Shown here: piece by piece, positions 1-41,490 of the stretch | Position numbering within the stretch: position 1 is the stretch's first letter | Layout of the letters: each line of letters opens with the position of its first letter | Assembly (NCBI GenBank): GCA_903813345.2 | Contig: CAIIXF020000001.1 | Span: 5,208,001-5,272,000 of the forward strand | Source: Owenia fusiformis | Lineage: Eukaryota | Length of the DNA: 64,000 nt | Direction of reading: 5' to 3' | The notes under the pieces: generated by a model | What the model was told of the DNA's origin: nothing | The model's database searches: none | The model's input: the letters and a program-made list of their open reading frames with translations, nothing else | Position numbers and translations under genes: made by a program

Positions 1-571
1 GTTTAATGTACACCTGAAAAGTTGAAGGTAACAAAAAATGAGCAAAAAAGGTCACTGTCACAGATTCTATTTTTCAAACTATATGACGTCACAATATGGG
101 ACGCTTACTAAGAATTCATCCTTTCAAATAACACTTCCATCTACTTTTATCAAAATGATAGTCAAATGTGAGTTATGAGCGTTTAAAGACGAAAAATTGT
201 TCAAAATGTAACGTGTCGACAGCGGATATTTGCCAGATTTTGGCCGGGGTAAAAAAACTCGTTTTAAAAAAAGAACGCGTAAAAATGGTATATACATTTG
301 ATTAGAATAATATCTTATATTCCGAAGAATTAAAGTTACATTCATGCAATACCCTAAAAACACAAGTGCGCCACCTTTTTGCGACGTGGCTATAGGAAAG
401 CTAGGTAGTCACCAGTGCAAAGGTTGTAGGTTAGTCCCTGAGCTGATTCTTCTAAGAGCTCTTGATAAGGAGTTTGTTGTCCGGGTGTCCGCCTCAAAAA
501 TCAACTACTGCATACCATAGTGTTCCTATATATGCTCTACACTCACTGGGTTATGGTATATTTATCCGGTA

Positions 572-1760
572 CAGGCCCGTAAGACACTTTTCTCCAAGGG
601 GGGTGCGGTTTTTACTAAAGAGAATATAAAATCGTCAATTTTTTGCCGCGTAAACCAAATCGCATAAGTCAGAGTGGGGGGGGGGGTCGGTCACTCCCCC
701 TAGAAGATTTTACAGTTTTGAGATGCTATTTGGTGCATTCTGGGCACTTTCAAAGTGTATGAGTCAATAAGAAAAATGTGATTTTTTCAAATTCTTTTGG
801 GGGTGTCAAAAAGGATGAGAGGGTGAAGTGGGGGAGCAAGGGGTCGTCCCCCAGAAACATTGACCATATCAAGGTGCAATTTGATGAGGTCTGGGCACTT
901 AAAAAATGTCTGAGACAATACATGAAATTCAGAATATTTTCTTTTGTTTTGTGGGGGATGTTAGGGGTGGCTTACTCTCATAGAAAATTTTACAATTTAA
1001 AGATGATATTTGGTACTTCTGGGCACTTTTAAAGTGTATTAGTCAATAAAAACATTGAAAAACAATCATAATTTTTTTCAAATTTTGGGGGTGTCAAAGG
1101 GGAGGGAGGGGTGCCAGAGGGGGAGGTGGAGTTGGGGTGCCAGAGGGGGAGCAAGTGTTTGTCCCCCATATCTGTCCCCCAGAAACATTTACGATATCTA
1201 GGTGCTATTCGATGAAGTCTGGGCACTTTAAAAGTGTCTGTGCCTATCAGTTCCCAAGAAAATTTTACAATTTTAAGATGCTGTTTGGTGCTTTCTGGGC
1301 ACTTTCAGAGTGTATGAGTCAATAAAAATTTGAAAAATCTTAATTTTTTTTTAATTTTTGGGGGGCAGGGGGTGTGTCAAGGGGGGATGCCAGATTTTAC
1401 GACACTATTTGGTGCTTCCTGGGCACTTTCAAAGTGTATGAGTCAATTAAAGAATTTGAGAAAATCACAACTTTTATCCAATTTTTTTTTTGGGGGGGGG
1501 TCAAGGGGGGGGGGGGCGCCAGAGGGGGAGGTGGTGTGGGGATGAAAGTGCAAGATGCAAGAGGAAAGCAAGTGTTAGTCCCCCAGAAACACTAACTGTA
1601 TCAAGGAGCTATTTGATGATGTCTGTGCACTTTAAAAGTGTCTGGGACAAAACACTGAAATAAATTTAGATTTTTTCCATTGTTTTGTGGGGGGTGTGAG
1701 GGGTGGCAAATACCCCTAGAAAATTTTACAATTTTAAGATGCTATTTGGTGCTTTCACCT
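572..1760. repeat. MITE-derived imperfect tandem repeat with G-runs
   Basis: Starts CAGGCCCGTA; ~8 recurrences of TTTGGTGC.TTCTGGGCACTTT.AAAGTGT separated by poly-G stretches. Confidence 0.65.
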
Positions 1761-2996
1761 AGAAAATGAGGATTTAGGCAAGGATGTATTGACTTAACAT
1801 GGGCTATATCCACTATGGACATATCTGGACATAGACATAGACATGGACATATCCATGGGGCCTATAATCATATTACCAAGCCATCATAGATATCTATTTG
1901 GGTTTCTGTCGCCCTGTAAATTTTATACATGCCGCATTACCTTTTTGAAGCATTAGACCGGGTTTTTATTGACCAAAACATTGGGTCATGCAGATTTTTT
2001 CTATAGCAGACGTTTGCACCCTGTGGGTACCATATAATTGACATTTTTCAAATTTTATGTTCTCTTGTTAATCTAAAGTACTTAATTCCTATCAAAACCA
2101 ATTGATATGATACTTCAAATGCAGTTCATGTGGTAGAAATATGTATATTATTAAAAGTTGTTTTTAGAAGGCAACCTTGGGTGACCCTATTTTAGAGGCA
2201 AAAGCCCCTGTTACAATCAAAACGAAATACGTATTTTTTAGAAGGGGAATTCAGTACTTTGAAATGGTATGTTCATTTTTGTGGCAGATGACGGGACAAC
2301 GAAACTACATTTTTAGGAGCAGCTCAGGCATGTCAGGGGCTATTGGTGGTTCAAATCCCATGACTAACCACTTTCTTTGTTGCCCAACTGTATTTGCGCG
2401 TACTTATTTATATGCAATATGGTTCATGTACATGAACTATTCAAATAACACTGGTGATCCGCTCGATTACGCTGGTTACCGAAACGGTTCGTTTCAGTAA
2501 CAAAATGTCGGAACGTCGAAGGTACGATTTTTCTTTTTTCTTTATTTCACGCGCTGTAGACAGAATCCTAACAGTTCTCTCACAAACGTGTATCAGCATC
2601 ATATATTTTAGAAAATTTGCAAAAAAATAGCTCAGAAGACAACAGAATCGTCGATTTGATTCCTCGATTAAGTTACATAAACGGTATGGATTAAAAGTGT
2701 AGATCTTTACCGTTTTTCGAAATACCGTTTATGTAACTTACGATACGTCAGCGTAACAAGATGGAAGAACTTCCGGGCTTCGTTTTCGGTAAGATATTTT
2801 TATTTCTCGATTCTACACCACTTATAAGTCAAGTTGTGGACAATAATTTGGCTCAAAGTTAAGGGAGATAGTCTAGTTTAAGAATATGCAGGCGGTTCTA
2901 TGTTTGGTATATTAACGACTCGGACGCAATTTACATATTTAGCCCCTCGCTTTTGTTACGTTGACGATCTTCATGAATATTGTCACATTGGCAATA

Positions 2997-3648
2997 TTCA
3001 TTTGACACCAAAAACACCTCAAACAGATCACATCAGAGTTGACACTAGATCATGAAAATATATTTTCGATCTATTAATTTATATATTTCAGGTTTTTAGC
3101 AATGCCATTGAAAGATGGCATTGTTGTTTGCATTAATTATCCATTCATTTTTGATAGGATTTTCAACCATGCGCCATCTTTTAATCCAAGAGTTATTTAA
3201 AACATACACTTTGTGAAAAGTGGTAATTCACTTCTTTTGATCTCTGAACTTCAAATGCTTTCTATGCAAGTAATTTTTCTTTCACTTCAGTATTAACCCA
3301 AATTAAAGTTTTATCATATTTGATTGAGTGTGTGAGTAACATGTCTCAAATAATGTTTTGTCCCTTTTCCTTCAAAAATAAGGTCTAAATAAAGTCTCAC
3401 TTTTGATCTTCATAGTATTTCCAATGGAAATACAATGCAAGTACCTGATCTTTCATTTGACACCAAAAACATTTCAAACAGATCACATCAGAGTTGACAC
3501 TAGATCATGAAATATATTTTCGATCCATCAATTTATATATTTCAAGTTTTTAGCAATGCCATTGAAAGATGGCATTGTTGTTTGCATTAATTATCCATTC
3601 ATTTTTGATAGGATTTTCAACCATAGGCCATCTTTTAATCCAAGAGTT
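2997..3648. repeat. Local direct duplication (~200 bp, offset ~455)
   Basis: TTCATTTGACACCAAAAAC...TTTTAATCCAAGAGTTA at 2997-3194 and 3452-3649. Confidence 0.85.
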
Positions 3649-4808
3649 AAATTATAAACGGTTATGTGGCTGACAAGCAAAATAATGTTCAGTGATATTA
3701 AATCTACCAATACAATATATTTAGAACAGTGGAGCTTCAACAGGAGGAAGTTGTTGAAATTTTTTCAATTAATTTAGTACTAAAGGTGTTGATCCATAGA
3801 CGCATAGCAAAGAACTGAAGTATATACATTTAGATGCACTTTTTAGCCACTAAAGCAATGACGTAAGCAGACAGCATGTACACACATGGAAATACAAATG
3901 CAAGAAAGTGATACAGTATCGGTGTTTATTGTTATAATTTGAAATAAAGAAATACAATATATAAAAAAAAGAATCAGATCTAGCAAGCGGGCCAACAAAA
4001 TAAATTTTATAATATTTCTGGCTCATGGCATTCCTTGTCATGCCTATTTTCTAAACATCGCCATAGTACACACTTTTTTCAGGATGGTTACCATTCTTAT
4101 TTTTTAGGAGAATTTAAACATTTTCACCCATTTTTGAACTTTGAATCCATAATAACTTCACCAATTTAGAACAGATAGTGAATCTTTTGGGAGATTGTAT
4201 TTGAGCTTTGAAAGAATAGATTAATAGGTCAATTGCACATGTCGTTTGTAATTTTTTGACCCCTATAGATCTGATTCTGCCTTTAATCACATAGGTTATT
4301 GTGTCATTTAAAAATTCTCCATTGGTTTACTGGGTTTTCCCAGAAGAATCTTATGACCATATGTGGTATCCCTTATTAAAATATTGATATAAACAAAGTA
4401 CTGCACATGTATCTCTCAACATTCATTAACATTTAGCCTACATGCAAGTAAATTTTTACAAAGAATAAATTCAGCCAGGTGGTCTGGAATATTTGATCAG
4501 ATTTCTTGCCCCTAGGCTGGGGAAATTGACACATTTATTTGGCCCGCATGGGGAGGAGGTCTCAAGCGAACTTTTGAATGGTGCATTACATCCTCTGACC
4601 ACTGCACTCCAAGATCTAGAATTAATCCTCTTAAGTGAAACAAGTTCTGTAGCCCTGTGTTAGAGGCTGTAGCGGCCTTTGAATCCACTTTTATGCATAT
4701 TTGAAGAATAGAATCATGGGACAAGGTGTACAACCAAGCCACTGATGATAAGCCAGAAAATGTTTTGTTTTCAACACTACCAAGAGTTCCTTGAACCTTC
4801 ATTATTTG

Positions 4809-4958
4809 CTATCCTGTGCCATTTTGATTATTTAGTATTTCCGCAACAGAAAACTTATAAAGTTCAGCATTTATCTTTTTAATTCTTTCAAGTTCTTTTC
4901 TGAGTTCTATGATTTCACTTCCATTTGTTGTTTTCCCTCTCTCAGTAGATACATCATC
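4809..4958 (-). CDS. WDR18: WDR18 last coding exon (DDVSTERG...ELRKELERIKKINAELYKFSVAEILNNQNGTG*)
   Basis: ccccag acceptor, TAG stop at 4809-4811, WDR18-type C-terminal coiled coil. AATAAA on the minus strand at ~4534-4539. Confidence 0.88.
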   Translation of the reverse strand, partial: DDVSTERGKTTNGSEIIELRKELERIKKINAELYKFSVAEILNNQNGTG

Positions 4959-7900
4959 CTGGGGAGCAAAATAAATCAATGATTAGTCTTCTCTTTTTGT
5001 CATCTTTTAAGAATGTAGTGCACATGTACTTTTATGATTGAATATCATGCCATGAAATATTATATGAATATTTAATTCTATTGAGGTGAATACCTGTGCA
5101 TCTTTCACAAGTAATGTTTCACAAAGAACATAGGGCTAGTGGAATATCATCTTGTGGATGTGTCACAGGTATTTACCGAAAATATATACCAAATATTCCA
5201 TTCTATTGAGGTGAATACATGTTCTCTTTCCCTCAGTATATTTCCCGCAACCCGATGGGCTGCGGGAAATATACCTGTAAGACATTGATTTTAATAAAAA
5301 ATAAATAAATAAAAAAAAGACATAATACAAAAATTATGTATAGTGCCCTAACATTGCTTGTTTGGTTTGAAGCATATCTGGAGGTGAACATTGTTGATCT
5401 TCTTGAAGCTAAAAATTGTGCATGCAAGACTCATAATCTCCATTTTGACATTGTATAATATATAATGATATACATTAAATGTTTACCTTGTCATTCATTG
5501 CCACCATATACTCTTCTATTAATGATGTGTCATCATCATTGCACTGGGAGTCCTGTAATAAAATAAATATCTTAATAACATATAAAACTAATAAATTATT
5601 GAAAAACAGCAACTCCACGGATAGTGGAGAATTAGAAACATATTTTGATCATTTGTGGCCATCTTGAAAATTCTTTCTTGAGCAGAGCTTGTTTGTCCCT
5701 AGGCATCAACATATAAAATTTGAACAAAATTCATTCAGTGCTATTTGAGTTTAGGCCATTCCCCTCCATACATTTACAATCATATGAAGTGCAACTGCAA
5801 TAAACATACTTACTTGCTGATTTGCATTTTTTTATTATTTTTGTTTACACCATGTTAAATTCTCAATGAAATTTTGTTTTCTAGCTTTAAAAATTAAATC
5901 AATTGAAGAAGAAATTATTGAATCACAAATTCATTTGGGACAGAGGCATTCCATTCGCAACATATTGCTGTTTTGTTGACAAAATTTTCTTATGCAAATT
6001 ATAGCAAAAATGCTCATTTTTAATGCATTACATAGACTTTAATTCAGTATGTCTCATTGTTTGTCTATGCAACATGAACTGCCTTCTGATAGCAGAGTTT
6101 TGTAAGATATTTTGCTACAAATTGTCCATTTAAACTCATTTTTGTAAGATTTTCTCCATAATCATATGTATGCAGGTAGCCCAAGAACTCTGATGTGTTT
6201 TTTTGATGACATAAGCTTAAGCTGAACAGTAAAACATACATATTTCTACATTGGAGATAATACTATATGTATGCTTATGGTGTAGAGAAAGTCTGTTAAG
6301 ACCCAGTGTCTTGATACCTTCCATACCTCTATGTTCCCCTGTATTCTGACTGGTATAGTGTGTCTAATGCTGGGTTCAGGAATAAAGAGCTGTCTTTTAA
6401 AGGGCTGCACAGGTAGGTTGGGCTTAGCATCCCCAAGTAAGGCGCCAGGTGTAGGTACTATCAGTGCATTCACAATTGGTCCTAAAACATACAACCCATC
6501 ATCAATGTCATGCAATTATCTAAATAGTGACCTAATAAGTGCCATAGTTTGCTCAAATAGGTTTTTATCCATGAGACTTAAATTCTTAAACGACTAGTCT
6601 CGATTTGGAGAATGAAGTTCATCAGTCTACTACATGTTACATTTTCCATTCAGGTATGGTCTAGTGATTGTCCAAAAATTTTAAAAAAGCAATTTTCTGA
6701 AATTGATATTTCTGTCTTAGCCATTATTTGAGCCATCTCTGGATTGCTTTCCTACATATTATCAATAGTATGTCAAATCTACTCATTTTATCAATAATCT
6801 TGTCAAATATGAAAAAGTGACTGCTTAGGAAAATTCTAATGTTTCATGCATTGAACTCTCTATCTGCACAAGAAATCATGAAAATTCCTTCAAAATTGAG
6901 ATACAATTGAGGGGTAACATTTCTGGGGTCATACTGTACAGGGAATTCATTTGAAGCCCCTCCCCTAGAAATGAATGAATATGAATCGTTCAATAATAAG
7001 AAGTTTTTGAGATAAAATAAAGCCCTGATATTTTGAGAAGTATATACAAAATATGTATATTCATTCACCAGAAAGAGAGGATTAGTATTGCGCAAGTTTC
7101 AAATCAAGTGTCCAAAAAAAGTTAAATTAAAATGTATGATCTTGCCTCCAGATTTCAGGATATCTATTTAGTAAAAGATTCACCAAAACTGTCCTTATAC
7201 AGGAAATCAAATTGTCTAACTTTTTCAAATTCAATTTTGCTTTCATTACACTGTACATATTATACAAATAAGAATTCAAACATAAGGATGCTTAAACATT
7301 CCAATGGGGGAGTTACGGTTGCCAAACTTTTGGAGGGGGTGTAAATTGTATGTATGAAAAATACAAAAGTGGTTTTATGTGATCAAATATTGTTTTTAAG
7401 AAAAATGGCAGCCATTTTGGATTTCAGCCGCCATCTTGGAAATTATTTCTTGAACAAATTTTTTTCCCAGGGCATACTCATATACAATTTGAACCAATAA
7501 AGGAGTTTCTAAATAGCTTTGAAATCTCGCTAATTCTCGTTTTTACATGAGATTTTAAGAGATTTGCACTTTTTTCCTCTAATGAATTACTTTTCTTTAT
7601 TTTTGATAGCATATTTGGATTCAGTGACAAATTTTCTCCAATTATAGCTTTGATTTAAACAGTTGTGTCATTAAAATCACTTTCCATGACATTTTTAAAA
7701 AACTTGGGCCAAATCTCCATTGGTGCAATGCTGAAATTCATTAAAACCTTGGTTTTTTCGTATGACAACCAATATTTTCATGGTTAATCACAATATGTAC
7801 ATGGACAGGGTCATCCAATAGTATGCCATTCAAATTTCAAACAGATTCAACCAACACTCTTTGATAAATCATGAAATTAAGTGACTGTTGCAAGACTCTA

Positions 7901-10900
7901 ACATTGGAGTGAGTGGAGGTCTGGCCCTAGAAAATCAAAGACAAGCAAGGGTGACATCTATTATGTCAGCACTTTTCAGCTATTTCAAAACTATACTATT
8001 CCATTCACTGGTATCTGAGTTATCAAAGATTACATTTTTTTTCGAAAACTGGCTGTATGTCCCAGATCTCTTACCTTAATATGGTATGGTTCTGATGTAC
8101 TGTTTGCTAAGTATGTCTCAGATCTCTTACCTTAATGTGGTATGGTTCTGATGTACTGTTTGCTAAGTATGTCCCAGATCTCATACCTTAATGTGGTATG
8201 GTTCTGATGTACTGTTTGCTAAGTATGTCCCAGATCGCTTACCTTAATGTGGTATGGTTCTGATGTACTGTTTGCTAAGTATGTCCCACATCTCTTACCT
8301 TAATGTGGTATGGTTCTGATGTACTGTTTGCTAAGTATGTCCCAGATCTCTTACCTTAATGTGGTATGGTTCTGATGTACTGTTTGCTAAGTATGTCCCA
8401 GATCTCTTACCTTAATGTGGTATGGTTCTGATGTACTGTTTGCTAAGTATGTCCCAGATCTCTTACCTTAATATGGTATGGTTCTGATGTACTGTTTGCT
8501 AAGTATGTCCCAGATCTCTTACCTTAATATGGTATGGTTCTGATGTACTGTTTGCTAAGTATGTCCCAGATCTCTTACCTTAATATGGTATGGTTCTGAT
8601 GTACTGTTTGCTAAGTATGTCCCAGATCTCTTACCTTAATATGGTATGGTTCTGATGTACTGTTTGCTAAGTATGTCCCAGATCTCTTACCTTAATGTGG
8701 TATGGTTCTGATGTACTGTTTGCTAAGTATGTCCCAGATCTCTTACCTCTTGGTATGGTTCTGATGTACTGTTTGCTAAGTATGTCCCAGATCGCTTACC
8801 TTAATGTGGTATGGTTCTGATGTACTGTTTGCTAAGTATGTCCCAGATCTCTTACCTTAATATGGTATGGTTCTGATGTACTGTTTGCTAAGTATGTCCC
8901 AGATCGCTTACCTTAATGTGGTATGGTTCTGATGTACTGTTTGCTAAGTATGTCCCAGATCTCTTACCTTAATGTGGTATGGTTCTGATGTACTGTTTGC
9001 TAAGTATGTCCCAGATCTCTTACCTTAATGTGGTATGGTTCTGATGTACTGTTTGCTAAGTATGTCCAAGATCTCTTACGTTAATGTGGTATGGTTCTGA
9101 TGTACTGTTTGCTAAGTATGTCCCAGATCTCTTACCTTAATGTGGTATGGTTCTGATGTACTGTTTGCTAAGTATGTCCCAGATCTCTTACCTTAATGTG
9201 GTATGGTTCTGATGTACTGTTTGCTAAGTATGTCCCAGATCTCTTACCTTAATGTGGTATGGTTCTGATGTACTGTTTGCTAAGTATGTCCCAGATCTCT
9301 TACCTTAATGTGGTATGGTTCTGATGTACTGTTTGCTAAGTATGTCCCAGATCGCTTACCTTAATATGGTATGGTTCTGATGTACTGTTTGCTAAGTATG
9401 TCCCAGATCTCTTACCTTAATGTGGTATGGTTCTGATGTACTGTTTGCTAAGTATGTCCCAGATCTCTTACCTTAATGTGGTATGGTTCTGATGTACTGT
9501 TTGCTAAGTATGTCCCAGATCGCTTACCTTAATGTGGTATGGTTCTGATGTACTGTTTGCTAAGTATGTCCCAGATCTCTTACCTTAATGTGGTATGGTT
9601 CTGATGTACTGTTTACTAAGTATGTCCCAGATCGCTTACCTTAATATGGTATGGTTCTGATGTACTGTTTGCTAAGTATGTCCAAGATCGCTTACCTTAA
9701 TATGGTATGGTTCTGATGTACTGTTTGCTAAGTATGTCCCAGATCGCTTACCTTAATATGGTATGGTTCTGATGTACTGTTTGTTAAGTATGTCCCAGAT
9801 CTCTTACCTTAATGTGGTATGGTTCTGATGTACTGTTTGCTAAGTATGTCCCAGATCGCTTACCTTAATGTGGTATGGTTCTGATGTACTGTTTGCTAAG
9901 TATGTCCCAGATCTCTTACCTTAATGTGGTATGGTTCTGATGTACTGTTTGCTAAGTATGTCCCAGATCTCTTACCTTAATGTGGTATGGTTCTGATGTA
10001 CTGTTTGCTAAGTATGTCCCAGATCGCTTACCTTAATGTGGTATGGTTCTGTTGTACTGTTTGCTAAGTATGTCCCAGATCGCTTACCTTAATGTGGTAT
10101 GGTTCTGATGTACTGTTTGCTAAGTATGTCCCAGATCGCTTACCTTAATGTGGTATGGTTCTGATGTACTGTTTGCTAAGTATGTCCCAGATCTCTTACC
10201 TTAATATGGTATGGTTCTGATGTACTGTTTGCTAAGTATGTCCCAGATCTCTTACCTTAATGTGGTATGGTTCTGATGTACTGTTTGCTAAGTATGTCCC
10301 AGATCGCTTACCTTAATGTGGTATGGTTCTGATGTACTGTTTGCTAAGTATGTCCCAGATCGCTTACCTTAATGTGGTATGGTTCTGATGGATTGTTTAC
10401 TAAGTATGTCCCAGATCTCTTACCTTAATGTGGTATGGTTCTGATGTACTGTTTGCTAAGTATGTCCCAGATCTCTTACCTTAATGTGGTATGGTTCTGA
10501 TGTACTGTTTGCTAAGTATGTCCCAGATCTCTTACCTTAATGTGGTATGGTTCTGATGTACTGTTTACTAAGTATGTCCCAGATCTCTTACCTTAATGTG
10601 GTATGGTTCTGATGTACTGTTTACTAAGTATGTCCCAGATCTCTTACCTTAATGTGGTATGGTTCTGATGTACTGTTTGCTAAGTATGTCCCAGATCTCT
10701 TACCTCTTGGTATGGTTCTGATGTACTGTTTGCTAAGTATGTCCCAGATCGCTTACCTTAATGTGGTATGGTTCTGATGTACTGTTTGCTAAGTATGTCC
10801 CAGATCGCTTACCTTAATGTGGTATGGTTCTGATGTACTGTTTGCTAAGTATGTCCCAGATCGCTTACCTTAATGTGGTATGGTTCTGATGTACTGTTTG

Positions 10901-13900
10901 CTAAGTATGTCCCAGATCGCTTACCTTAATGTGGTATGGTTCTGATGTACTGTTTGCTAAGTATGTCCCAGATCGCTTACCTTAATGTGGTATGGTTCTG
11001 ATGTACTGTTTGCTAAGTATGTCCCAGATCTCTTACCTTAATATGGTATGGTTCTGATGTACTGTTTGCTAAGTATGTCCCAGATCTCTTACCTCTTGGT
11101 ATGGATCTGGTGTTTTATTTGCTAAGTATGTCCAAGATCTCTTACCTTTATGTGGTATGGTTCTGATGCATTGCTTGCTTGATATATCCCAAATCTTGAC
11201 ATTCCCATCTTGTGAACCTGATACCAGCAGACTGCCATCTAGGGAGATATCAAGGCATGATACTTCTTTACTGAAATAAATGAAGTTTGCTATTTAGACA
11301 ATATTCATGATCAAATGATTTTACGCTTTTCAAACTCTTTTGTCCATAGCTAACTCTCATATTAACCCTTAAACAGAGAGGAGGATCTGCCCCCTAAAGA
11401 ATTTTTTTGATAACTTTTTTCGTTATTTGTCCTTTAATCAGAAACTTTCTGACTTCTCTTAAAACTGAACTGGGCATGTTTTAAAGAAAGAATTGTAACT
11501 TTAATCATTCCCCTTGGAGGAAAGTTAGAGCTGGTCAAAGTTACTGTAATACCAAACTTGTCAGCAGTTTTTACTTGAAACGATAAACCCCCGTGTAAAT
11601 TAAACTAGAAATCGGTAACACCAAGATATAGCAAATCCCAACGAACACTATATATTCATGAATCTGTATATGTCACAATATAATTATTTCATGGATGGAT
11701 GGAGGGCTTCACTATATCCCCACCAAACTTTGTTCATTGGGATAATAAACCTACCCAATAAATATGACTGACACAGACCTGGATATTGTCCAACTTACAG
11801 TCTAACATACCTGTGTCTATTGAAACTGATGTAGTCACCATCGCTTTGGTTGTGCCTTTTAAAGTGAACTGGCTGAAACAGTCAGATGTAAAACTTTAAA
11901 ATTAGTTAAGTGTTCAAACAGACATGCTTCCCCTTAATTAGGTATTTGTACTTGAATTTTTTTCAATTCTTACATACATGTATTGGTATGCATCGTCTTT
12001 GATGCCTATATTCTTCATTTATCATGGTTTGAGCTATCAGAAGAAGGATATGATATTAATCTTTAATGGTATTTTTAAATGATTTGAGTAGAAATATAAC
12101 ATTTGAATCAATTTCAACCACTGTAATTTGATTTATCAAAGATAACATCTTTTTAAAATGGCAGCCATTTTGAATTTCAGCTGTGATCTTGAAAATTTTC
12201 TCTCAAGAAGACTTCCTTTGTCTATAGGCATAAGCATATAAAATTTGAACCAAATCCATCCACTGATATTTAAATTATCAAAGATTACATTTTTAAATGA
12301 AAAATGGCAACAATTTTGAAATTTTGCCGCCATCTTGAAAATTACTTCTTCAGCAGAGCTTGTTTCATATAAAATTTGAACCATATGCATCCACTGGCTT
12401 TTGAGTTACACCCTATACTTAGTGAGCGGACCTAATTTCAAGGGTGATGGTAAAGACGAGGCAGGGCGCCCAAACCTAACTGTAGCAGACCAGCAGTAAG
12501 TTTATTTCTCTAAGTTCTACTCTTTATTGGCCTTGTGCTGGCCTGTAACTAGGTGCACTGATGCTTCAGATGCCTATAATTAGATTCGTAATGAAAGAAA
12601 GATTCATACTTATATGTGAAACGGATACGAAGTGATGTGAAAAGAAAAATTAATTTTCTGCATATTTTTTTTTCGATTATTTTCAAAATAATGATACTTC
12701 TCCTGCATAGAATTCCTTGATATTGCATGTAATTATTGTTGATGAACGTATTTATATCGTAAACCCATCCATTTCCCAATTTGAGCCGTAATTGCAGTCA
12801 AATCATAAAAAACACCCTACAAATAAAATGAAAATTCGAAAAATCGTTAATGTCTGCCATGTTAACAACCTCTCACTACATCTGTCATGGTAACAACCTC
12901 TGACTACATCTGTTATGTTAACAATCAATAACTACATCTGCCATGTTAAAAATCTCTGACTACATCTGCCATGTTAACAACCTCTGACTACATCTGTCAT
13001 GGTAACAACCTCTGACTACATCTGTTATGTTAACAACCAATAACTACATCTGCCATGTTAAAAACCTCTGACTTCATCTGCCATGTTAACAACCTCTCAC
13101 TACATCTGTCATGGTAACAACCTCTGACTACAACTGTTATGTTAACAACCTCTAACTACATCTGCCATGGTAACAACCTCTGACTGCATCTGCAGTGTTA
13201 ACAACCTCTGATTACATCTGCCATGTTAACAACCTCTCACTTCATCTGTCATATTAACAACCTCTGACTATATCTGTCATGTTAACAATCTCTGACTACA
13301 TCTGCAGTGTTAACAACCTCTGATTACATCTGCCATGTTAACAACCTCTCACTTCATCTGTCATATTAACAATCTCTGACTATATCTGTCATGTTAACAA
13401 TCTCTGACTACATCTGCAGTGTTAACAACCTCTGATTGCATCTGCCATGTTAACAACCTCTCACTTCATCTGTCATATTAACAACCTCTGACTACATCTG
13501 TCATGTTAACAATCTCTGACTACATCTGTCATATTAACAACCTCTGACTACATCTGTCATGACTCTATCTGCCATGTCAACAGCATCTGACTACACTTGT
13601 CATGTATATAAAGTCTGACTTCATTTATTATGTTAACAATTTCTGAATACACCTGCCATGTTAACAACCTTTGACATCAACAATCTCTGACTACATCTGT
13701 CATGCGTCTGATTTTTTATGACTTTGTCAACATTTGTTAAAAAAAGTGTGGGCCAGTTACCATTTCTACAATTTTAAGATTCTTTTAAGTTATTCTATTT
13801 ATTCGTTCAACAACCAACACTTTTTGATAAATCATAAAATCAAGTGACTACATGTTTTGCAAGTTTTTACCATTGATTGAAGCCTATGACAACCTTGCCC

Positions 13901-19900: not shown

Positions 19901-22900
19901 GAATCTACCAGTGAGCCGAGAGTAATTATTATTCTCCGCGGAACTAACAGAGAGTAGGCTAGGAGTAATCTGAGAGTGGAAAGAGTAAGTTGAAGAGCAA
20001 TTTGGAGTAATTAAGGAGTTGTCTGAAATTAGGAGTAATCTTGTGAGTAATCAAGGAGTAATTCAAGAGCAGGGGGAGCAAATTGAGAGCGATCGTATTA
20101 GCAGAGGAGGAGTAACTTGAGTAAACCAAGAGTATATTTGGAGTTACCTGTAGAATAACCAGGAGTATTGTGAATTTTGCTGTGAGGAGTAACCCAGAAT
20201 ATTAACCTTGTTCCTGAGAAGTAACCAGAGAGTAAATGAGACGATCACATAGGATCTTAGAAGAGACTGAGTAGCCAAGTGAATATAATTTTCAGGACAT
20301 TGAGAGTAGTATTTCTTTATGAACAATTCAGTGATGATAGACATTTGAGTTTTATTTTATCAGAGCATTTGAGTAATAATAAGGACTTTGAGATTACTCT
20401 TTGAGTATAGAAGGATAAATAAAGACAGTAGAAGTACATTATTTGAGTAAACTGATATTTTATTGTAACGTTTTATTGTACAAATATATGTGTTTTTGTT
20501 GCCATTAATTCTTGTCATGTACGTTTTCTTAAGCCGCAGTACCACCAAACCAGGTCTGCGCCCACGTAGATAATCTGTGAGAATCCCATAATAAAATATT
20601 TGTCAGTGACTTGACCTCTCCACACTACCACATTTTGGCCAGGTCCGACATTGGTGGCAGCGTCGGGATTTGCTTAGGGAGGACGTCCAAAAGAGAATAT
20701 GGCAACTAAACCAGAGGAAGGGATGGAATACATGGAATCCCAGACGGAAGGGAGAAGACAGGAGGAGGAGTCTGCTGATAATACTGTCTTCTTCCAAGGA
20801 GATAATGCTCAAATGGATATTGGGCTTGATGATACAGTGCCAGTCAGAAGAGACACGTTTAGTGGAACCGAATCTGCAAGACAAGCAGAGGAAAATCCAG
20901 CAGGAGCGAGGTCAAAGACTGGATACACAGTACAGGGAGAAGGTTATGGGATGACACCAGCAAGAGGTTACCCTTTAACATCCACTGTACTAGAAGGAAA
21001 ATCTCCAGGAGTAATTATGCCAATGGGACAGGAGCTACAGAGTCAGCAAGTCCAGATGTCTGTGTTAGACAGTCAACTGAAGGCGCTGGACCAGCAAAAC
21101 AGAACTATGTATGAGGATCTGAGGAGGGAAGTATACTCAGGTCAGGAAAATCTTCGAAGGGAAGTAAATGCAGGTCAGAGAGAGATCCAGACAGAGATAG
21201 AAAGACTGAGTGCAAGCCACCTGGAAGCCCAACAAGAAGCTAAAGGAGCGCTACAAGACGTTAAGGGCTTTCTGTCTATTCTAGTGCAGCGTCTTCCTGC
21301 TACTAAGGATGACAGTTGTTTCACTTCTGATGAGTCAGGGAGTAAACAAAAGCAGAGTTATGGGAGTACAATGGCTGCAAATCAAGAGCTAGATCAGAAG
21401 AGTAGACTAGACTCTCAACATACTCCAACCAGAGTAAATACTCAGCCGCAAGGAGATGTATGCTCTGGCATACATATGAAAAGGCCATCACTTCAGAGAC
21501 AAGATCAGTATGTTGGTGAGGAATTAGCATCACATCTTGGCAAAGGATGGTCACGGGAAGCTAAGATGGGGGGTGATAGTTGGCCATTATCCCAAGAATA
21601 TGGAAGGAGTTACTCTGAGCAATTGAGAGAGCAGGGAAGGTCTGCTCCATTGCTCAGAGAGGAGACGTATCAGATGCCTACCCAATACTCCCGAGAGCAG
21701 TTGGCCCAGGAGGGGGTTGGAGAAATCTGTGGCGGAGGAGAACTCGACAGGAGTGAGATAAGGAGAAGTAGGAGACATTCCCTACACTCTCCGATGGAGT
21801 ACCCTCCTGATCATCAGGATGGGAGGCAACCAGAGGAACTCATTGCTAATGTTCCAAATCCAGACCTAAGTAGAGGTACCCAGCAGAGAGTATCAACGGA
21901 AGCATTAGCTCCAGAGGTGAAAGAGGAGAAAGCAGCAGAGTCAGTGATTGTTACCAAGGTTCTGGACATGTGTACTAAGTTAATTGAGTCCAACAAAGGT
22001 CCACGGGTGCGAATAAAGCCAACACAAACCTTCGATGGTAGTACACCTTGGAAAGACTACAAGGCATATTTCTCTACATGTGTAGAGAACAACGGCTGGA
22101 CTCCAGATGAGAAAAGGCAGTATTTGGCTACCAATCTTCGTGGAGACGCCCAACAATTGGTGCTAGAACTAGAAGAGGGCTATTCCTATGAGGACTTAAT
22201 AGAGGCCCTGGAAAAGCGATTTGGACCTGGAGGGAAGGCTGACGTCTTCGAGGCTGAGTTGTGCAGTCGCACACGAAAGCCAAAGGAGTCCCTTCAGAGT
22301 TTGGGCCAGAATATCCGGCGTTTAGCTTCGTTAGCCTATCCTGAGATGAGCAGGATGGCTCAAGATAGGCTTGCCAGAAGGAGCTTTGAGCAAGCCATAC
22401 CAGATGATGATTTGCGACAAGCCATTCACAGGAAGGATCCAGAAACACTTGATAAGGCCATTGAGGTAGCTCTCAAAGAGGAAAGCTACCAGGAATCGGA
22501 AAGAATCAGGAGAGGCCTAAAATCTAAGAGGGATCATAAAATCTTGCAAGTTGATGAGGAAGATGATATAAGTACTAAACTGCAGCAAATACTAAAACCA
22601 GTGGAGCAGTTACTCGAAAAGACACTGGGAAAGATGAGTAAGGATATAGCCGATATCGCTAACAGAGGACCTTCTAAACGTACATTCAGTTGTAAAAAGT
22701 GCGGAGAGGAGGGACATAGAGTAAGATGGTGTCCAACAATTACATGTTATAATTGTGACAAACCTGGGCATTTGTCATTTGACTGTCCATTACCTGAGAA
22801 GCCAAAAAGAGAGAAAGATCAGTCCAGGACAGTAACCACCAATTCTGTGACTCCTGTGAGGTTTATGGCAGATCGTTATGAGGAGATAACTACAGGGAAT

Positions 22901-25900
22901 AGAGAGGAACTGGTGCGGAAGATAGTAGCAGATGTGGATATCTGTGGGACTAGGATGGAATTCCTTGTGGATTCAGGAGCTGTAAGCAGTATGCTAGGGT
23001 GGGGTTGCTATAATCGAATCTCAAAGAGGTGTCGTCCTTGTTTGAGGCCCTTAAGTCGTCTCTTTACTCAGGCAGATGGATCCCATTTAGCTGTGTATGG
23101 AATGATATCATGTGACATTGAACTAGATGGTAAAGTGATGCCGATGAATATAGTGGTAGCAGATATTGCCCAAGATGGTATCCTTGGATCAGAATACTTA
23201 TCTGCAAGTGGGGCAATTATAGACTATGCTGATCTCAGAATTTACTTCAAGGACCAAAACCAAGAGGAGAGAAAACCTGATGTAGAGAAAATAATGCTGG
23301 ATTCCTCCAACCAGTTGCAGAATAAACGAGAGAAAGATAGGGTCATTGAGAAAAGTTACTCAAGCAGGACCAAAAAGACAACATTCGACAGGAATGTAGA
23401 CGCTGATGATACTGAGATAGGGGGAGAGTATCCAGAGACAATTGGGATCTACGTTTGTAGTCAGGAGCAAGAGACTGAGAATTTAGTTTCTTGTAGGAGC
23501 AGCGATGGAACTTCTAAGAGATCTGAAGAGATAACCAATAAAGACTGCACCATTCAGAGCACAGAGATTCATCCAAATAAAGGTACGAGGATAAGATGTG
23601 AGAAATCCTGGAGTAATGAATCCAAAGAGAAGATCAATGAGGAGTTTACTACTGGAAATGACTCTCCAAAGAGTAAGCAGAGACAGAGAAAGGGTTTGAT
23701 GCAGAGGAAAAAGAAAGCGTTGTCCATTTCAAGTAACAAGGTTCAGGAGAGAAAATTACAAAGATGTACTTTGGGAAAAGCACTTCAAGTAAGCAAGGTG
23801 AAAAGTCTTACTAATGAGAAAATCCAAAGGGGAGATATGATAGTACAAATTCAAAGGAGGAGGATACCGAAGATTATAAGAAAAAATTTCCATCAGCGCC
23901 ATAACTTAGAAGGAAATGAAAAGAGGAACCTTACTCTGGGTTGTAAATCGGTACAGAGTAGAGATGGAAACCCTACTTCTAGAGGCAGCTCGCCAAATAG
24001 TAGAGAGCGACCATTGGATCGGAGAGGAAGGCCTACTCAGAGTAACTCAGAGAATAAGGTAAGCAGTCGGAATATTAATGAAGTTCGAGTGAGTAAGGCA
24101 GTAGTACCAACCCCATACAACAGATGTCTGAGGGGAAAGATGGAGCATTTGGAAACAGGACCTCTTGGTGAAGAGAGTAAAACAAAGGAACTTTATCAGA
24201 GAAGGCCATTCACAAGGAATAGAGTCAAGGGAGGGACCAGAGAAGACAACTCGCAGAAGAGCAAAGCTACATGGACTAGGAAGTTGTCACCCACTGAAGA
24301 AGGAGAAATAATTTCTATTCTGAGATTCTGGATAAGGAAGAGTAGAGAGTCTGCCTTTTGCAGAGAGGTGCCAACGAGTAAAACAAAGATGCCAATACAG
24401 AGTAGGGAACAATGTGTAGAGATCGGACTTACTCAGAGGGATAAGATGTTAGAGTGTGATAGAGGAGCCTTTACTGAGGACAGAGCACAGGACTACAGAG
24501 AGAAAAATTCTTTTAAAAGACAGTGATTACATGTTGAGAAGTAGAGATTGAAATGGGTATACTTAGAGGCGTTAAGTGATATATTTGTGTATGAAGAGTT
24601 TTATATGGAGTAGTTTTATACAGAACCTACTAGATAATTAGTGTTTGAATATGTGATAACTATAACACAGAGACATTTGAGAGTGTGAGTTCATGAGGAG
24701 TTTTGAAGCATCATAGACTATAAGATGTTAAATGTTATTTTTATAGTTGATTGAACTTTAGATTAAGATGGTCGTTTACTCATTACTCGAGCTAAGAGTA
24801 GCAATGCGAGGGCGCATTGATTTAAGATGGGGGGTGTGTGGGAAATTTAGGAATTCCCCACTTTATGTTATTTTAATTAAATTGTAATAATCTTTAATAA
24901 ATTTAGAAGTTAATTGTTACATCTCATATACAATATAAGAGGGACTCTCCCGGGAGTTATTAATTACACTGGACCGAAAGGTAAAGGGTATTTCCCCTAA
25001 AATTGGTCACGTGGGATCCCTGATTTACAATAGTTGAACCTGGGGCTTGAGGAAGAAGAAGCGTAAGGAAGATGGCGGCCATTTAGCTTTGGATTGATGC
25101 TGAAACTTGTGGAGATATCGTAGGAGATAAGTGTAATCTGTCATTAAGGATAATGACATTTATTCGAGAAGTATTTTGTGCTGTTGTTGAGGCAGTTTAA
25201 TCTACACGGAAGTAGGTTTATTGGACGTTTTGGAGAGGGAAAAGCGGGAGAGAATTAGGGCCATGTGTGGTGTGACTACCTGTTGATGACCCGAAGTTTG
25301 GAGTAAGGTATCTAGAAGCAGGAAGACGCATGTGGTAAGGTAACCTTTTTCTATGGTTCGTATTCCATAGCTTCAAATGATGTTGAGGATGATGATGTGC
25401 TGATCATCTATTATTTTTGAGAAGCAGTGAATTATTTATAAGACTTTATTAAAGGTGCATTTATGTGCGTTTAACTTTGTATTTCCAAGCTAAATATTTC
25501 CATCTGGCTGCCAGTGTTGTCTTCCAAGTGTTTGATATCTAAGCCTGTGAACTTGATTCTCAGTTGCGGCATCTAAAAGTGAGCTGGAGGTAATTGGTAC
25601 TTCCCGCGGAACTACCAGAGAGTGACTGGGAATCAGTGTTGTTTATTGTTTATCAGAACCTGATTTATACAGTATTTTTATGCTTACATCAGTTTGAGAT
25701 CGAGAATAACCTTTTCATAATTGTGCTTTTGGTATTTTCCTACTTTTGCTAATACAAGGGGAATCCATATCTCTGTAACAAATTAATTCATTATCATTTA
25801 GCTTGTCTGAACAAATACTCCTTACTTTACTTTCCTAACGTTTCTTTAGTTAACTTTGCATAGTTTTGCTAGCTGTGGAGTAAATTGATCTTTTGCCTTT

Positions 25901-28900
25901 GCTCCTCATGTGGATTATCAGGGAGTAATATAGATTGTTCATTTCTCATTAGAATTACTCATCTCCAGCATTGTTTCACTCTTATTGTAAGAGCTAATTT
26001 ATTCAGGTTTACTCATTGGCCCTACAGAATCTACCAGTGAGCCGAGAGTAATTATTATTCTCCGCGGAACTAACAGAGAGTAGGCTAGGAGTAATCTGAG
26101 AGTGGAAAGAGTAAGTTGAAGAGCAATTTGGAGTAATTAAGGAGTTGTCTGAAATTAGGAGTAATCTTGTGAGTAATCAAGGAGTAATTCAAGAGCAGGG
26201 GGAGCAAATTGAGAGCGATCGTATTAGCAGAGGAGGAGTAACTTGAGTAAACCAAGAGTATATTTGGAGTTACCTGTAGAATAACCAGGAGTATTGTGAA
26301 TTTTGCTGTGAGGAGTAACCCAGAATATTAACCTTGTTCCTGAGAAGTAACCAGAGAGTAAATGAGACGATCACATAGGATCTTAGAAGAGACTGAGTAG
26401 CCAAGTGAATATAATTTTCAGGACATTGAGAGTAGTATTTCTTTATGAACAATTCAGTGATGATAGACATTTGAGTTTTATTTTATCAGAGCATTTGAGT
26501 AATAATAAGGACTTTGAGATTACTCTTTGAGTATAGAAGGATAAATAAAGACAGTAGAAGTACATTATTTGAGTAAACTGATATTTTATTGTAACGTTTT
26601 ATTGTACAAATATATGTGTTTTTGTTGCCATTAATTCTTGTCATGTACGTTTTCTTAAGCCGCAGTACCACCAAACCAGGTCTGCGCCCACGTAGATAAT
26701 CTGTGAGAATCCCATAATAAAATATTTGTCAGTGACTTGACCTCTCCACACTACCACATTTTGGCCAGGTCCGACAATATAGCAAATATTGTAAAATAAC
26801 ACACATAAGAAAGGCCACCATTTTCAAAATCGTTGCTCACTAGCCAAGTTTTCATCAGAAAAAGTAATATGCTTTTAAGTAGGGACATATAAAAATCTTT
26901 AAAAATCACACACACGTACATGTAAATGGTGGTCATTTTTTAAAACTAATACACAAAATGTCAATGGGGCTTTTAACATTCAGGGATCAGATGGAATTTA
27001 TCGCCATTCCTTATTGTGGTGGTGATTACCGCCATTTTAGAAATGAAAGGAGGGGAACTTTTTGTAAGTTTCTTTTGGTTTTAGTATAAAAATACATGAA
27101 AAGATGTCAGGACAATCCATTAGCGATGCCTTGTTTGCTCTGTCATCCCTCATTTCGAATTTGCTTTTACTTTTGTGTCAAGAAAGAGAGACAAGAACAC
27201 AAAGGTGCACAACATGTTCCCACCAATGGGTGATCCTATATTAAGCTCATTCCAGATATAAGCATACATTTGAGTCGCCAGCTATAATCTCATTATAGTC
27301 CAGAAATAAAACTCATTTGTTATTTTAGAAGTTGGGGTTGGAGTCTACCTTTACCACACTATTCAGTAATATGTATTTACACATATTTTTCAAGACCCAA
27401 ATATAGCTGAACTAGTCTCTAAGCTAGAGACTTGAGTAATCTTTGTATTATGTTGGGTCCCATTTGGAGTGGGGTTTTCAGATAAATTTCTCTTGTTGGT
27501 ATAATACTGTAACCTACCATTTTTTGAAGCGGCCACATATGAATCAAAGGCTTGTTGGCTATTGCTGCAATCACATACTGCCCACCAAGTAGTGCAAGGG
27601 ACCTAGGGGCACTAGAACCACCTTTAAATGTCGCAATAGTTGTACCTGAATATGGATCCCAAATACACGTGTTCCATAGCTGTCCTGTAGACTCACTTGT
27701 TATAAGTATCTGGAGTATAACAGATTCATATTAATACAAGTGATGTTACAATAGTGATGGCTCGGTTAGATTCAGTTACCTGTATTTTACAAACGGGGGT
27801 CTTTTACAGGTGGGAGTCTTGTACAGGGTGGCCAGAAAGAAATGTTATCTCCTTGAATAATATTTTACTCCAGTTTTTAGGCACCACTAATTAAGAAATA
27901 TAGAACGAAGAGCAGAGCCAGGGCATTGATCTCGAATATGCCCCAGGTGAAACTAGACTATATCCTCTAGTCTGAAATTTTTTTGAAATTTGGAATGAAA
28001 ATATTCAGACTATAGCCCACATATAGTGGATGAGCTCGGACCACTTTTTTACTCACACTATTGCATTTTTATAATTATGTTAATTATTTGTAGTTTATCA
28101 TTTGCCATTGATTTTGAAAATAATAGGGTCTATTAAAAATGTAAAATAGTTCCCCTTTTCATCATATGTGGTCAATTTTCATACAACTTATAAAATATGT
28201 ATTCATGAATGTTCCCCAAACATTATTTTGTCAAAATATTTCAAAATTATTGAAATATGAGAAGAAATCAACGCGGAAGGAATTCTGAGTAAAAGTTGTG
28301 TTGATAATAGTTTACCGCACGTGTTGTTTATTAGTTAATATGCGCAATTCAACCAATGAAATTGTCTAAATTTTACAATCACGCGACCTGAGCATGGGAC
28401 TAGAACCAATCACGTCAGTTGTTTATTACGAAGTTACCATGCTTACGGTGAGATACCTGCCCGTCGCAGTGATATATCACTGCACGGGAGTTCGCCTCTT
28501 CGAATAATCGCCATTAATGCCCTCCTTGCTACTTTTATGAGGGGGTAATACGATAAGCATCCATAATTTATGTTATATATCTCCAATCAAATTTATATTT
28601 CTAGGGAGTGTGTATCTATATATAACAAGTTCCCATGACAAGTTTGATCATGCTTGGTCAAGTGGTTGCCATGGCAACACAACTTAAGTGCGAAAAATTG
28701 TTAATATTTCAAATTAAACCACCAGTACTTTAAAAAGTAAACGACTGCTAATCTCTTTGGATTGCACCAATCAGCATGAAGTTGACTTTAAAAACATATT
28801 TAAGGAGTTTTCAATGAAATAACATGATTAAAATGATTAATTGAATGATATCTATGACTCTAGTCCATTACTCTATTTGGTCACTATCATTCACATTGCT

Positions 28901-31900
28901 CAAAAGTGGGCGTGGCACTTTTAAGTAACTATCTTGAGTAATTCATGTTATGTACCACGTAGGGGCCGAAATTTTAAATGTTTGGAACTACTTTGAATCT
29001 AAAAATAAGCAATTGGAGAACCATATTGAAACAGAATATGTAAAAATAGAAACATTTATATATCTGCTTCATATGGGGTTATTAGCCTTTTGCAGATTGT
29101 CGACATAGACATTTAGACTCTATACTTGTCCTAACTTTTGTATATTTTAGAGTCTAGTTTGTTTTGTATTTTAGCTATCATATCTGCACATTACACATAA
29201 CTATCTGAAATATACAAAAAATAGGACTTGTGCATACTGCATATGCTTCCATTTTTTCATATACTCACTGTTGCAATATATACAGTCATTTGATTGCTTA
29301 TTTTTTTTAAGTCCAAACATGCACTCTAAAATTTCTTGAAAATTATAGTCTACGGTACGCCCATAGGCCAAGGGTAAAGTAATAGTAAGCCATATATAGA
29401 AGAGACAGGTGAACAACTCTGACTTAGACCACTTGTTAAGATGGAGATTTCAACATTATTTAGTGTATTATTTTCAAAAACACCCCGGGTGATCAATATC
29501 CTGTGTTCCGAATTTCGTTCCAGCAAGTCAGTGAGTTGTGTTTTACTGAATCCCGACAAATATGGCGGCTAATTTGACAACAGACGATGTTGATGTCGAC
29601 AATTATTCAAAACTTTCTGACAGCATAAGGTAAGACTGAATATAGAGTGGCGCATTCGGTGCCTAAATATGTTTGCAACATTTTCTTAGTTGTTTATCCA
29701 TATGCGTTGGGCATTACTGCTAATCGAAGCATAAGTAAACGTGACCTCATTTTCAACGCTCGCTGGAAAGTATGTCACCGAGCAGTTTTTGACCTTCTGT
29801 TAGTTAATGAGATAAACTGTTATCATGGTATAATTGCTGGGTAAACGTTCAAAGTATGTACCAACTCGTGCTTCCAGTGAATATAAACCATTTCTTTGCA
29901 TAAGCGTCCTAGAAGGCATAATAAGATATATTCCATAGTACCGAATAGGAATCGCCAGTGTTCCGACGCACTTCATGGATAAATGCTCATAGACTATTGA
30001 ATCATAATGAACAGAAGCAATGTATACTCACGTGTGATATCTTAATTTATCAAAAATAAGAATTGAATGCATTTGATAATATTGATACTTTGCCAACTTG
30101 ACTGATTTTTTTCTAGTCTGAGTAATTAATAAATGAGTAGTGGATTTGATTAATTGAGGATTTCCCATGTTAAAATATGTGAAAATTGTCAAGAGGCCAC
30201 ACACATCAGAGGATGAGAGTACAATACAACGATGTGTAAATTATGAGACTATGTTGCAACACCTTCAAAGAATGGTCATTTCACAATCCACATTGCACAT
30301 ACTGTAGCAGGCATTTTTATGATATATTTTAACATTGTCACAAAAACCAGGGATTGACAAAAAATATAGCATATCATATAGCAGGTATATGCCAGGTATT
30401 GTAATATATTTCAACGTTGTCACTGTTAGAGTAGGCATTACAATTTACCCATAAAAATATAATAATATTGACAACAGGCTAAAAAGTCTTCACTTAGTAA
30501 GCCATAAATGTCACATAAAGGCGACGGTCACACCAGGCTTTCACGATAGCATTGCTAAGGTAATAGTCCCTGGTATGACTTCCGAATATGAAGGATCCGT
30601 AGCACACTATAGCGCAGCAACATTTGAAGCAATATTTATGAAGGTGTATATGTCTTGATTCTTTTAAAATACCATTTGCCGAAAAAACTTCCGGCTTTCG
30701 GGTCGAAAAATGTATTTCATCACAAGGGGTCAAAAAACGTAAATATTTTGATTCGAACTTTTATAAATTTTATAAGACACAGACCGTTATTCTAAGCATA
30801 CGAACAAAAAAATTGATTATCATAATGTCAAAATTACTATGATTTTACTGTAGATGTCGGTGTTTAATTAGTGTAATTACACAAGTGTGTTTTTCAGATT
30901 TTGTTTGATTTTTCAAATATGAGCTAAGCCGATTCAACAAAATTGTATGGAATATTTAGGTAATTTTTTTTGATTGGGAACGTATTAGTTTTCCGGGTAG
31001 TTTTCTTACCAGTTAAAACATTTTATTACCAGAATTTTTCCATATAATCGTAAAGGGTCTAACAACAAATTATTGTTGATGTTTTATAAAACATAATACA
31101 ATAACAAATAGGTAAGATTCATATCTAATTCGATGTTACAGAGGTATTTGCATGTTCATATATTCCAAGGGCATGTCTAATAATCAATTAGAGTCATATG
31201 CAGTCGAACGCCTTACAATTCTTCCTCGACGTTAGTTGTGGCTATCATCAAGTTTTCTGATAGTTGTTTCTTCTTTGACCTTACCGAAGGATGCAATCAA
31301 ATTTTAGGAAGATAATGATAACGATTTTTCTCAATTATTCATGAATTCGACCAAGTCTTGATGGTTGTTTCATAAGTAACTGAGCTATATCTAACTACGA
31401 GAAATGGAATTTTAGCTGTAGTCGCAATTAGTCAAGGGAGAGCAATAGGCCCACCTTTATTGATAATGTTCACCGCTGAATAAAAGTTCATATCTTAAAA
31501 CGTATTGAGACCCATTTTGCGAAAAACTAGCATAATTTAAGCATTTGTCATTCTAATAGAAAAGTGATTCATTTGTAGCATTTATCTTATTAATACCCGA
31601 GAAACAATACAAAATGTCGATTCACTGATGACATAATCTTTTGGTATTGAATAGAAAAATAACCTCAAACTTTTAGCTTAGAAACCTAAATCATATACTT
31701 AAAATCATATTTTATTATTTGCTATTGCATTGTGTACTCCAAATTGTAAAAGTTTGGAAGTTTATTTTTTGGAAATTTTTTGACCTCTGTTAATGGCAGG
31801 CATAATTTAGCCTTAAAGCCGGAAGTATATTAAACGGTTATAATAAAAATTATTAGGGGACATATGTAGGTATGCTTATGTTAGGTCAAATATCGCTGCG

Positions 31901-40894: not shown

Positions 40895-41490
40895 ATCAAA
40901 AAATCAATGGTTCGAGACATCAAGTGATCAATGGTATGGAACATCAAGTGATCAACAGTACTGGATATCAAGTAATCAACAATCTAGGACGATCTATAGT
41001 AAATAATAAGTATGGGAATCAAGTAATTAACAGTGTGAGAAATCAAGTGACCAATGGTATGGGGTAGAAAGTGTTAAATAGTATGGGACACCAATTGATC
41101 ATAAACATTGGGCAGTAAGTGATGAACGATATAGGGCAGTAAGTAATCAACAAAATGGAACATCAAGTGATCAACAGTATAGGAAATAATCAACAGTGTG
41201 ATCAATAGTATGGGAAATCAAGTAATCAACAGTATGGGACGTCAAGTGATCAATAGTATGGGAAATCAAGTAATCAACAGTATGGGACGTCAAGTGATCA
41301 ATAGTATGGGAAATCAAGTGATCAACAGTATGGGTCATCAAGTGATCAATAGTGTGAGACGTCAAGTTGTCAATAGTTTGGTATATCAAATGATTGATAG
41401 TATGGGACATCAAGTCGGATCAATATAGTATGGGCGTATAGTATGGGGTATGGGACCTCAATGATAAACTTTTACAGTATGGGGCATCAA
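40895..41490. repeat. 24-bp minisatellite (CAAGTGATCAATAGTATGGGAAAT-like)
   Basis: About 24 degenerate units; produces QVINSMG(N/R/H)-repeat ORFs on both strands. Confidence 0.9.

Follow-up and report, generated by a model that had tools for sequence, protein, structure and literature searches.

What does the spliceosome make of an exon whose own 3' end, splice donor included, is repeated dozens of times immediately downstream of it? This question is raised by a stretch of 64,000 nucleotides (nt) from Owenia fusiformis (contig CAIIXF020000001.1 of assembly GCA_903813345.2, positions 5,208,001 to 5,272,000 of the forward strand; hereafter the window, in which coordinates are counted), where intron 8 of the WDR18 orthologue, a gene for ribosome assembly in this marine worm, carries a tandem array of units joining the end of exon 8 to its donor. 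A first-pass annotation, made from the letters of the window alone, had suggested that this array could act as a poison-splicing rheostat, as a substrate for recursive splicing, or as a sink for the U1 small nuclear ribonucleoprotein (snRNP). Here we argue that the array is very probably a ‘mirage’, i.e. a minisatellite spanning an exon boundary, and effectively neutral.

The identity of the gene is secure. A search with the exon 2 peptide led to a single protein, P0001, which is 433 amino acids (aa) long, carries the source label Owenia fusiformis WDR18 and is 100% identical. The 11-exon model built from window coordinates matches P0001 exactly, and the best PDB matches of this protein are human WDR18 (E=1.7e-106). 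The full protein was required for this last identification, because the exon 8 peptide alone yielded generic WD40 matches, with no WDR18 among the 60 PDB matches listed. The first coding exon (37973-37990) contributes 18 coding nt only, and is followed by a 10.3-kb intron (27710-37972).

Tandem Repeats Finder (TRF) places the repeat at 8055-11179, with a period of 56, 56.0 copies and 96% matches. When split at the donors, the array (8055-11145, minus strand) resolves into 55 complete units and a 20-nt stub, the units being 56 nt long in 52 cases and 53 nt in the remaining three (units 1, 8 and 43). It begins at the first base of intron 8, and in each unit the donor hexamer precedes a 50-nt copy of the exon 8 end, with nine positions differing from the exon (41/50 identical). 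Both the 55 copies of a 56-bp unit and the degree of identity had been read correctly in the first pass. The 56-nt units lie on average 0.83 nt from their consensus, with unit 1 and the exon itself as outliers, and at least eight unit variants follow each other in irregular order along the array. The distal end adjoins a fragment of a dispersed repeat that is also present in introns 5 and 6; therefore, the original start of the intron has been lost or displaced, and is not recognisable there. AATAAA occurs once in the array, namely in unit 1 (11114-11119 region), ~26 nt past the true donor.

So where does the unit come from? A 19-mer taken from it has 52 exact matches in the 499.5-Mb genome, all of which fall at this locus (51 units and exon 8), while the reversed 19-mer that served as a control has none. 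Similarly, all 25 of the blast matches listed for the unit lie at the WDR18 locus. These matches rule out a dispersed satellite or a transposon as the source of the unit, and the comparison of 52 matches with none for the control also rules out that its similarity to exon 8 arose by chance. They support what the first-pass annotation had put forward, namely that the array would have been seeded from the exon 8/donor junction. The alignment shows a short AAGA(T) match, common to the donor and the interior of the exon, at the unit breakpoint. The differences between the exon end and the consensus unit are synonymous in four of the seven changed codons, an excess that in a post hoc test reaches P values of 0.012-0.026 on the six single-change codons and of 0.06-0.12 on all nine changes; eight of the nine differences are held by the 5' 27 nt (Fisher P=0.028, also post hoc). 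A coding paralogue was considered as the source of the unit and rejected, as the synonymous excess is accounted for by ordinary drift at synonymous sites of the exon, one of which (11192) carries another allele in the RNA. At the borderline strength of a post hoc test, the synonymous changes suggest some age and drift of the exon.

Each unit presents the splicing machinery with a decoy. The GT is kept in all 55 of these, which comprise 31 AAG|GTAAGA, 19 AAG|GTAAGC, three GAG|GTAAGA, one AAC|GTAAGA and one AAG|GTATGA, and identity with the true donor over positions -3 to +8 is found in 31. The first-pass description of a series of AAG|GTAAGR donors thus needs two small corrections, in that position +6 is A or C rather than R, and the first decoy reads GAG|GTAAGA. 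Since 31 downstream donors are identical to the one in use over this span, sequence strength alone cannot explain the choice, which makes the array a natural test of 5' splice-site choice. The coding outcome is as foreseen. Decoy 1 adds 53 nt and leads to a stop 9 nt into exon 9 (a 331-aa product), while decoys 2-55 all end at the TAG of unit 2 (335 aa). As such, every decoy entails a premature stop upstream of later junctions, and under the usual exon-junction rule both products are targets of nonsense-mediated decay (NMD).

In order to see which donor appears in RNA, three raw RNA runs (X21, X22 and X23) and one raw DNA run (X24) were aligned to 11017-11916, a stretch that covers two exons (7 and 8) and the initial 2.4 units of the array. 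The RNA runs are cDNA libraries made with NMD active, and about 6-12 in 100 of each run was read. Mean depth in the three runs is 36.4, 20.4 and 19.2 in the exon 8 bin 11167-11196, and 25, 14.6 and 11.4 in the bin containing the donor, consistent with coverage that stops at the true donor; in the bin within unit 1 it is zero in each of them. The joint between exons 7 and 8 is carried by 23, 15 and 21 reads, and no joint from exon 8 to a unit is found among the RNA joints listed, for which at least three reads were required. Any transcript that uses a decoy or retains the intron must cover unit 1, and therefore the zero depth there bounds both forms, at less than ~4-7% of the steady state (rule of three, from ~70 read layers and ~46 distinct starts nearby). 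With NMD active, this figure is an upper bound at steady state rather than an exclusion. Reads internal to the array come from X22 only, at a depth of 4 and on the sense strand, and include six joints going back 56 nt from two start places, which amounts to at least two units in tandem. Taken over 54 units, each unit has a depth of ~0.07, which is ~0.4% of that on the exon and agrees with the background of intronic reads. At steady state, the authentic donor dominates in the mRNA, and carriage of the array is seen for X22 only.

The exons themselves also differ between the reads and the assembly. In X22, C>G at 11266 is found in 18/18 reads, and the RNA shows another allele at 11192. Over all runs, every RNA read departs from the assembly at the exon sites 11266 (65/65) and 11861 (67/67), so that either the allele is a rare one or the assembly is in error. 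The change at 11266 turns Glu into Gln, the residue that human WDR18 has at this position.

Arrays of this kind have been described before. In amphioxus, mirage minisatellites are known from Adh3, the globins BflGb6 and BflGb9, troponin C and PGBD5, with splicing reported to be undisturbed (PMC3087553, PMC3902484). Like these, the WDR18 array consists of tandem copies of an exon/intron boundary, in the genome of a marine invertebrate, in which splice signals are kept, inner units are homogenised and edge units are excluded. Unlike these, it is found in an annelid, it counts 55 units as opposed to 3-6 in BflGb6, and its unit is almost entirely exon (50 of 56 nt). Six of seven mirage features are present at WDR18: a head-to-tail unit of 10-160 bp, a real boundary in the first unit, a locus-specific unit, a splice signal in most units, a dominant authentic site, and concerted evolution with divergent edges. 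For the seventh, copy number between haplotypes, DNA run X24 covered neither exon 8 nor the array. The human F7 gene provides a second parallel, as the 37-bp variable number tandem repeat in its intron 7 has a first unit that spans the exon/donor boundary, and is followed by identical downstream donors that are functional but remain silent, the first donor being used (PMC1557585). However, the F7 unit combines 4 nt of exon with 33 nt of intron in 5-9 copies, and the silence of its donors was demonstrated with 50 minigenes, whereas that of WDR18 is seen in steady-state reads only. The same paper cites other human minisatellites that reiterate a donor, in 6-16 (25 pseudo-sites), CBS intron 13 (15-20 repeats), lamin B2 (100 bp x 10-15) and PDGF (81 bp x 16-18); the copy number at WDR18 is ~2x the largest of these four. 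Both 6-16 and CBS make use of their two nearest pseudo-sites, while no such use is seen in WDR18. According to the title of one CBS report cited there, a substitution within the second repeat stops multiple alternate splicing, a loose parallel to the altered unit 1 of WDR18. Our literature search found no paper on WDR18 together with a minisatellite, nor one joining UPF3A to a VNTR and a splice donor, and PMC10078293 contained nothing specific; the locus seems undescribed in the literature searched, its kind already known.

How common are such arrays in this genome? An unbiased sample of 0.8 Mb, i.e. 80 stretches of 10 kb over the 12 large contigs (L024-L103), was scanned for arrays whose period lies within 20-200, with no fewer than 4 copies and with matches of 80% or more. 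The sample holds 40 arrays (39 with one pair merged), which cover 38 kb of the 800 kb (4.8%) at about 50 per Mb. Donor motifs occur in 6/40 units compared to 3.5 ± 1.75 for the controls, where 6 is attained by 36 of 300 replicates. Acceptor motifs occur in 3/40 compared to 5.4, and enrichment of splice signals in array units was not found in this sample of 40. An edge screen of all 40 arrays, with a closer look at 7 places, resulted in two boundary-spanning cases confirmed by Pfam and two probable ones, where 1.4-2.5 are expected by chance among 39 arrays. This chance model takes 26,966 genes, a count given in PMC9977687, and assumes 5-9 introns per gene, for which the probability of four or more cases is 0.049-0.23. 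The sample, although small, shows that boundary arrays are common in the genome without clear excess over chance. Scaled up to the genome, the 3-4 cases in 0.8 Mb correspond to about 1,900-2,500 of them (95% range 390-6,400), and the two Pfam-confirmed cases to about 1,250, which suggests a number between hundreds and a few thousand. In our literature search, at the level of titles, no genome-wide survey of such arrays was found.

Several of the other arrays deserve comparison (Table 1). The array that follows an Adaptin_N exon (L105) likewise repeats the 3' end of an exon plus a GTAAGT donor into the intron, its first five donors all being AAG|GTAAGT. Unlike those of WDR18, its units have scarcely departed from the exon, with 2 differences over 72 nt that both fall at the edge of the unit, and it is therefore younger than the WDR18 array. 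The peptide next to the acceptor-side array (L053) has no PDB match. Neither of the two peptides at L091 has a Pfam match, and the one that was also searched in PDB has none there; Atlas leads point to MFS transporters at scores below 0.9, and both arrays at this locus probably lie in one MFS-type transporter gene. TRF reports an array at each of eight further genome loci examined, for three of which the upstream open frame was checked. The first decoy scores equal to the donor in WDR18, L105, L016, L017 and L020, and lower in L091; L018 and L019 do not enter this comparison. As such, systematic weakening of the first downstream donor was not found in the five donor arrays other than WDR18 (equal in four, weaker in one).

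Could the array still serve to regulate WDR18, as a rheostat in which use of a decoy leads to a stop and to NMD, so that the length or splicing state of the array tunes the gene and a hairpin sets the threshold? The premature stop behind each of the 55 decoys and the 31 copies identical to the donor over -3 to +8 would suit such a role, and in 6-16 and CBS the nearest two pseudo-sites are indeed used (cited in PMC1557585). Folding predictions add to this. The exon end with four units is predicted to fold better than 200/200 shuffles (z=-2.97), the changes specific to unit 1 complete a predicted hairpin over decoy 1, and the predicted cost of opening this decoy is 6.3-7.2 kcal/mol compared to 3.3-4.3 for the true donor in 4/4 windows, and to means of 2.0-5.9 for the other decoys. 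Among random versions of the unit with five changes, 49/1000 are as occluded as decoy 1 (p about 0.05), a test that was devised post hoc. Conversely, other real WDR18 donors are predicted to take 2-10 kcal/mol to open, and therefore a cost of 7 at decoy 1 is not unusual; the hairpin is a weak lead, and not a finding. Against a rheostat further stand the absence of reads in unit 1 in 3/3 RNA runs next to ~70 read layers at the exon end, and the presence of similar arrays in genes unrelated to WDR18, roughly as often as chance predicts. We consider it very unlikely, and the poison-splicing role envisaged in the first pass did not find support, with the proviso that NMD was active in these libraries. 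An extended version, in which the array is a length-variable rheostat coupled to NMD on this essential rixosome gene, the unit-1 hairpin was built by selection so as to mask the nearest decoy, and ~10^3 similar arrays tune gene output across this annelid genome on a population scale, is equally unlikely.

Some observations do weigh against an effectively neutral mirage with a single donor in use, and must be taken into account. The RNA was taken with NMD unblocked, so that more decoy product could be hidden, and the letters of the exon 8-exon 9 junction were not directly read in the RNA joints listed. X21 and X23 are without any array read, and for those animals carriage of the array is thus not demonstrated; DNA run X24 is equally without array reads, as it is without reads on exon 8 (single-copy bins 0-2x). 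If there are only 5 introns per gene, the four boundary cases become a borderline excess (P=0.049). Lastly, the predicted occlusion of decoy 1, stronger than that of the true donor, could point to selection on unit 1.

The runs without array reads would also be compatible with an array that is real but owes its length to an assembly effect or to a single haplotype, many animals having few or no copies, and mirage clusters in amphioxus are length-unstable (PMC3087553). X24, however, hardly covers the locus, and the X22 reads span at least two tandem units in animals with exon alleles unlike those of the assembly. Moreover, the assembled array is not one repeated unit but a succession of diverse types without regular order. 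This explanation is therefore very unlikely.

A recursive splicing ladder, in which the AG|GT boundaries of the units would be ratchet points for stepwise removal of intron 8, finds such a boundary at 54/55 decoys. Yet the ends preceding the decoy GT are AAG in 51/55, GAG in three and AAC in one, and the consensus unit has 3 T in positions -20 to -4, whereas all 10 real WDR18 acceptors are CAG or TAG with 7-11 T. Furthermore, the intron measures 4.7 kb only, and no joint between exon 8 and unit 2 is among those listed (at least three reads, from cDNA libraries that are poor for intermediates). This second suggestion of the first pass is thus highly improbable. Its third, a sink that titrates U1 snRNP and alters splicing in trans, has next to no probability in spite of 55 U1-complementary sites per pre-mRNA, as array RNA is at or below intronic background, U1 ranks with the most plentiful RNAs of the nucleus, and the few nascent molecules of one moderately expressed locus should be negligible against it.

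If the array is an effectively neutral mirage minisatellite, a history in four steps may be proposed. Initially, tandem duplication would have affected a 56-nt stretch made up of the exon 8 end together with the donor hexamer, slippage at the short match at the unit breakpoint being the probable mechanism. Unequal crossing-over or slippage could then have expanded it to 55 units, homogenising the inner copies without reaching unit 1 at the edge or the exon, as the pattern of differences suggests, and a later rearrangement would have put the dispersed-repeat fragment at the far end. In the present steady state, and within the limits given above, the spliceosome takes the donor that comes first downstream of the exon 8 acceptor; the whole array therefore departs together with intron 8, and a normal protein results. 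Rare decoy products would finally meet a premature stop and be removed by NMD at a small cost, and the hairpin over the nearest decoy may be of help. Since minisatellites number in the tens of thousands in this genome, some are expected on splice junctions. By itself, WDR18 is a long and clean example of a known oddity and carries little weight; the genome-wide numbers, on the other hand, are enough for testing first-donor choice and intron gain from mirages.

Table 1. Features of the WDR18 array and its surroundings (window coordinates), and arrays at other loci (coordinates within each locus)
Feature	Position	Strand	Basis
WDR18 orthologue, coding span, 11 exons, 433 aa	4809..37990	-	spliced model equals P0001; human WDR18 match
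Exon 8, 125 nt, one WD40 repeat	11146..11270	-	gene model; RNA depth 19-36; exon 7-exon 8 joint
Terminal 50 nt of exon 8, serving as template for the unit	11146..11195	-	41/50 identical to consensus unit
Authentic 5' splice site AAG|GTAAGA	11140..11148	-	exon 8/exon 9 join in P0001; RNA depth stops here
Intron 8, 4,664 nt, two thirds array	6482..11145	-	gene model
Exon 9 with T-rich acceptor	6327..6481	-	gene model
Unit 1, 53 nt, edge copy with the greatest divergence, decoy 1 GAG|GTAAGA at its end	11093..11145	-	7 differences from next 53-nt unit
Predicted hairpin, -16 kcal/mol, pairs decoy donor 1	11080..11110	-	prediction only
In-frame TAG in unit 2, met by any read-through past decoy 1	11069..11071	-	unit 2 sequence
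Units 2-55, homogenised copies, decoy donor at each start	8075..11092	-	mean 0.83 differences from consensus
Final 20-nt partial unit with decoy 55	8055..8074	-	unit split
Dispersed-repeat fragment adjoining distal end of array	8000..8053	-	blastn 81% to 12308-12255, also 15218-15179, 12154-12111
L105 donor array, 82 bp x 34, after Adaptin_N exon	L105 2086-4852, C6 near 38.0 Mb		Pfam E=7.9e-12
L053 acceptor-side array, 94 bp x 11, before SLOG-in-TRPM exon	L053 6255-7281		Pfam E=1.9e-4, below curated cut-off
L091, two donor arrays (58 bp; 32 bp x about 78), after hydrophobic open frames	603-3009, 6441-8952		

The window holds further repeats and open frames. A second minisatellite, with 25 copies of a 28-bp unit whose consensus is unlike the 56-bp unit, lies in WDR18 intron 6 (12853-13561), and a diverged array of 24 bp x 21 is located upstream of the gene (40916-41434). 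Within WDR18 intron 2, and antisense to the gene, a 1,282-aa open frame (20678-24526, plus strand) encodes a zinc knuckle (E=5e-11) along with weak matches to an aspartyl protease and to DUF1759, and resembles the gag-protease part of a long terminal repeat (LTR) retrotransposon. Further along, on the minus strand, there is an exon with an HLH domain (55455-55817, Pfam E=1.3e-11), which looks like part of a gene of the Id/extramacrochaetae type.

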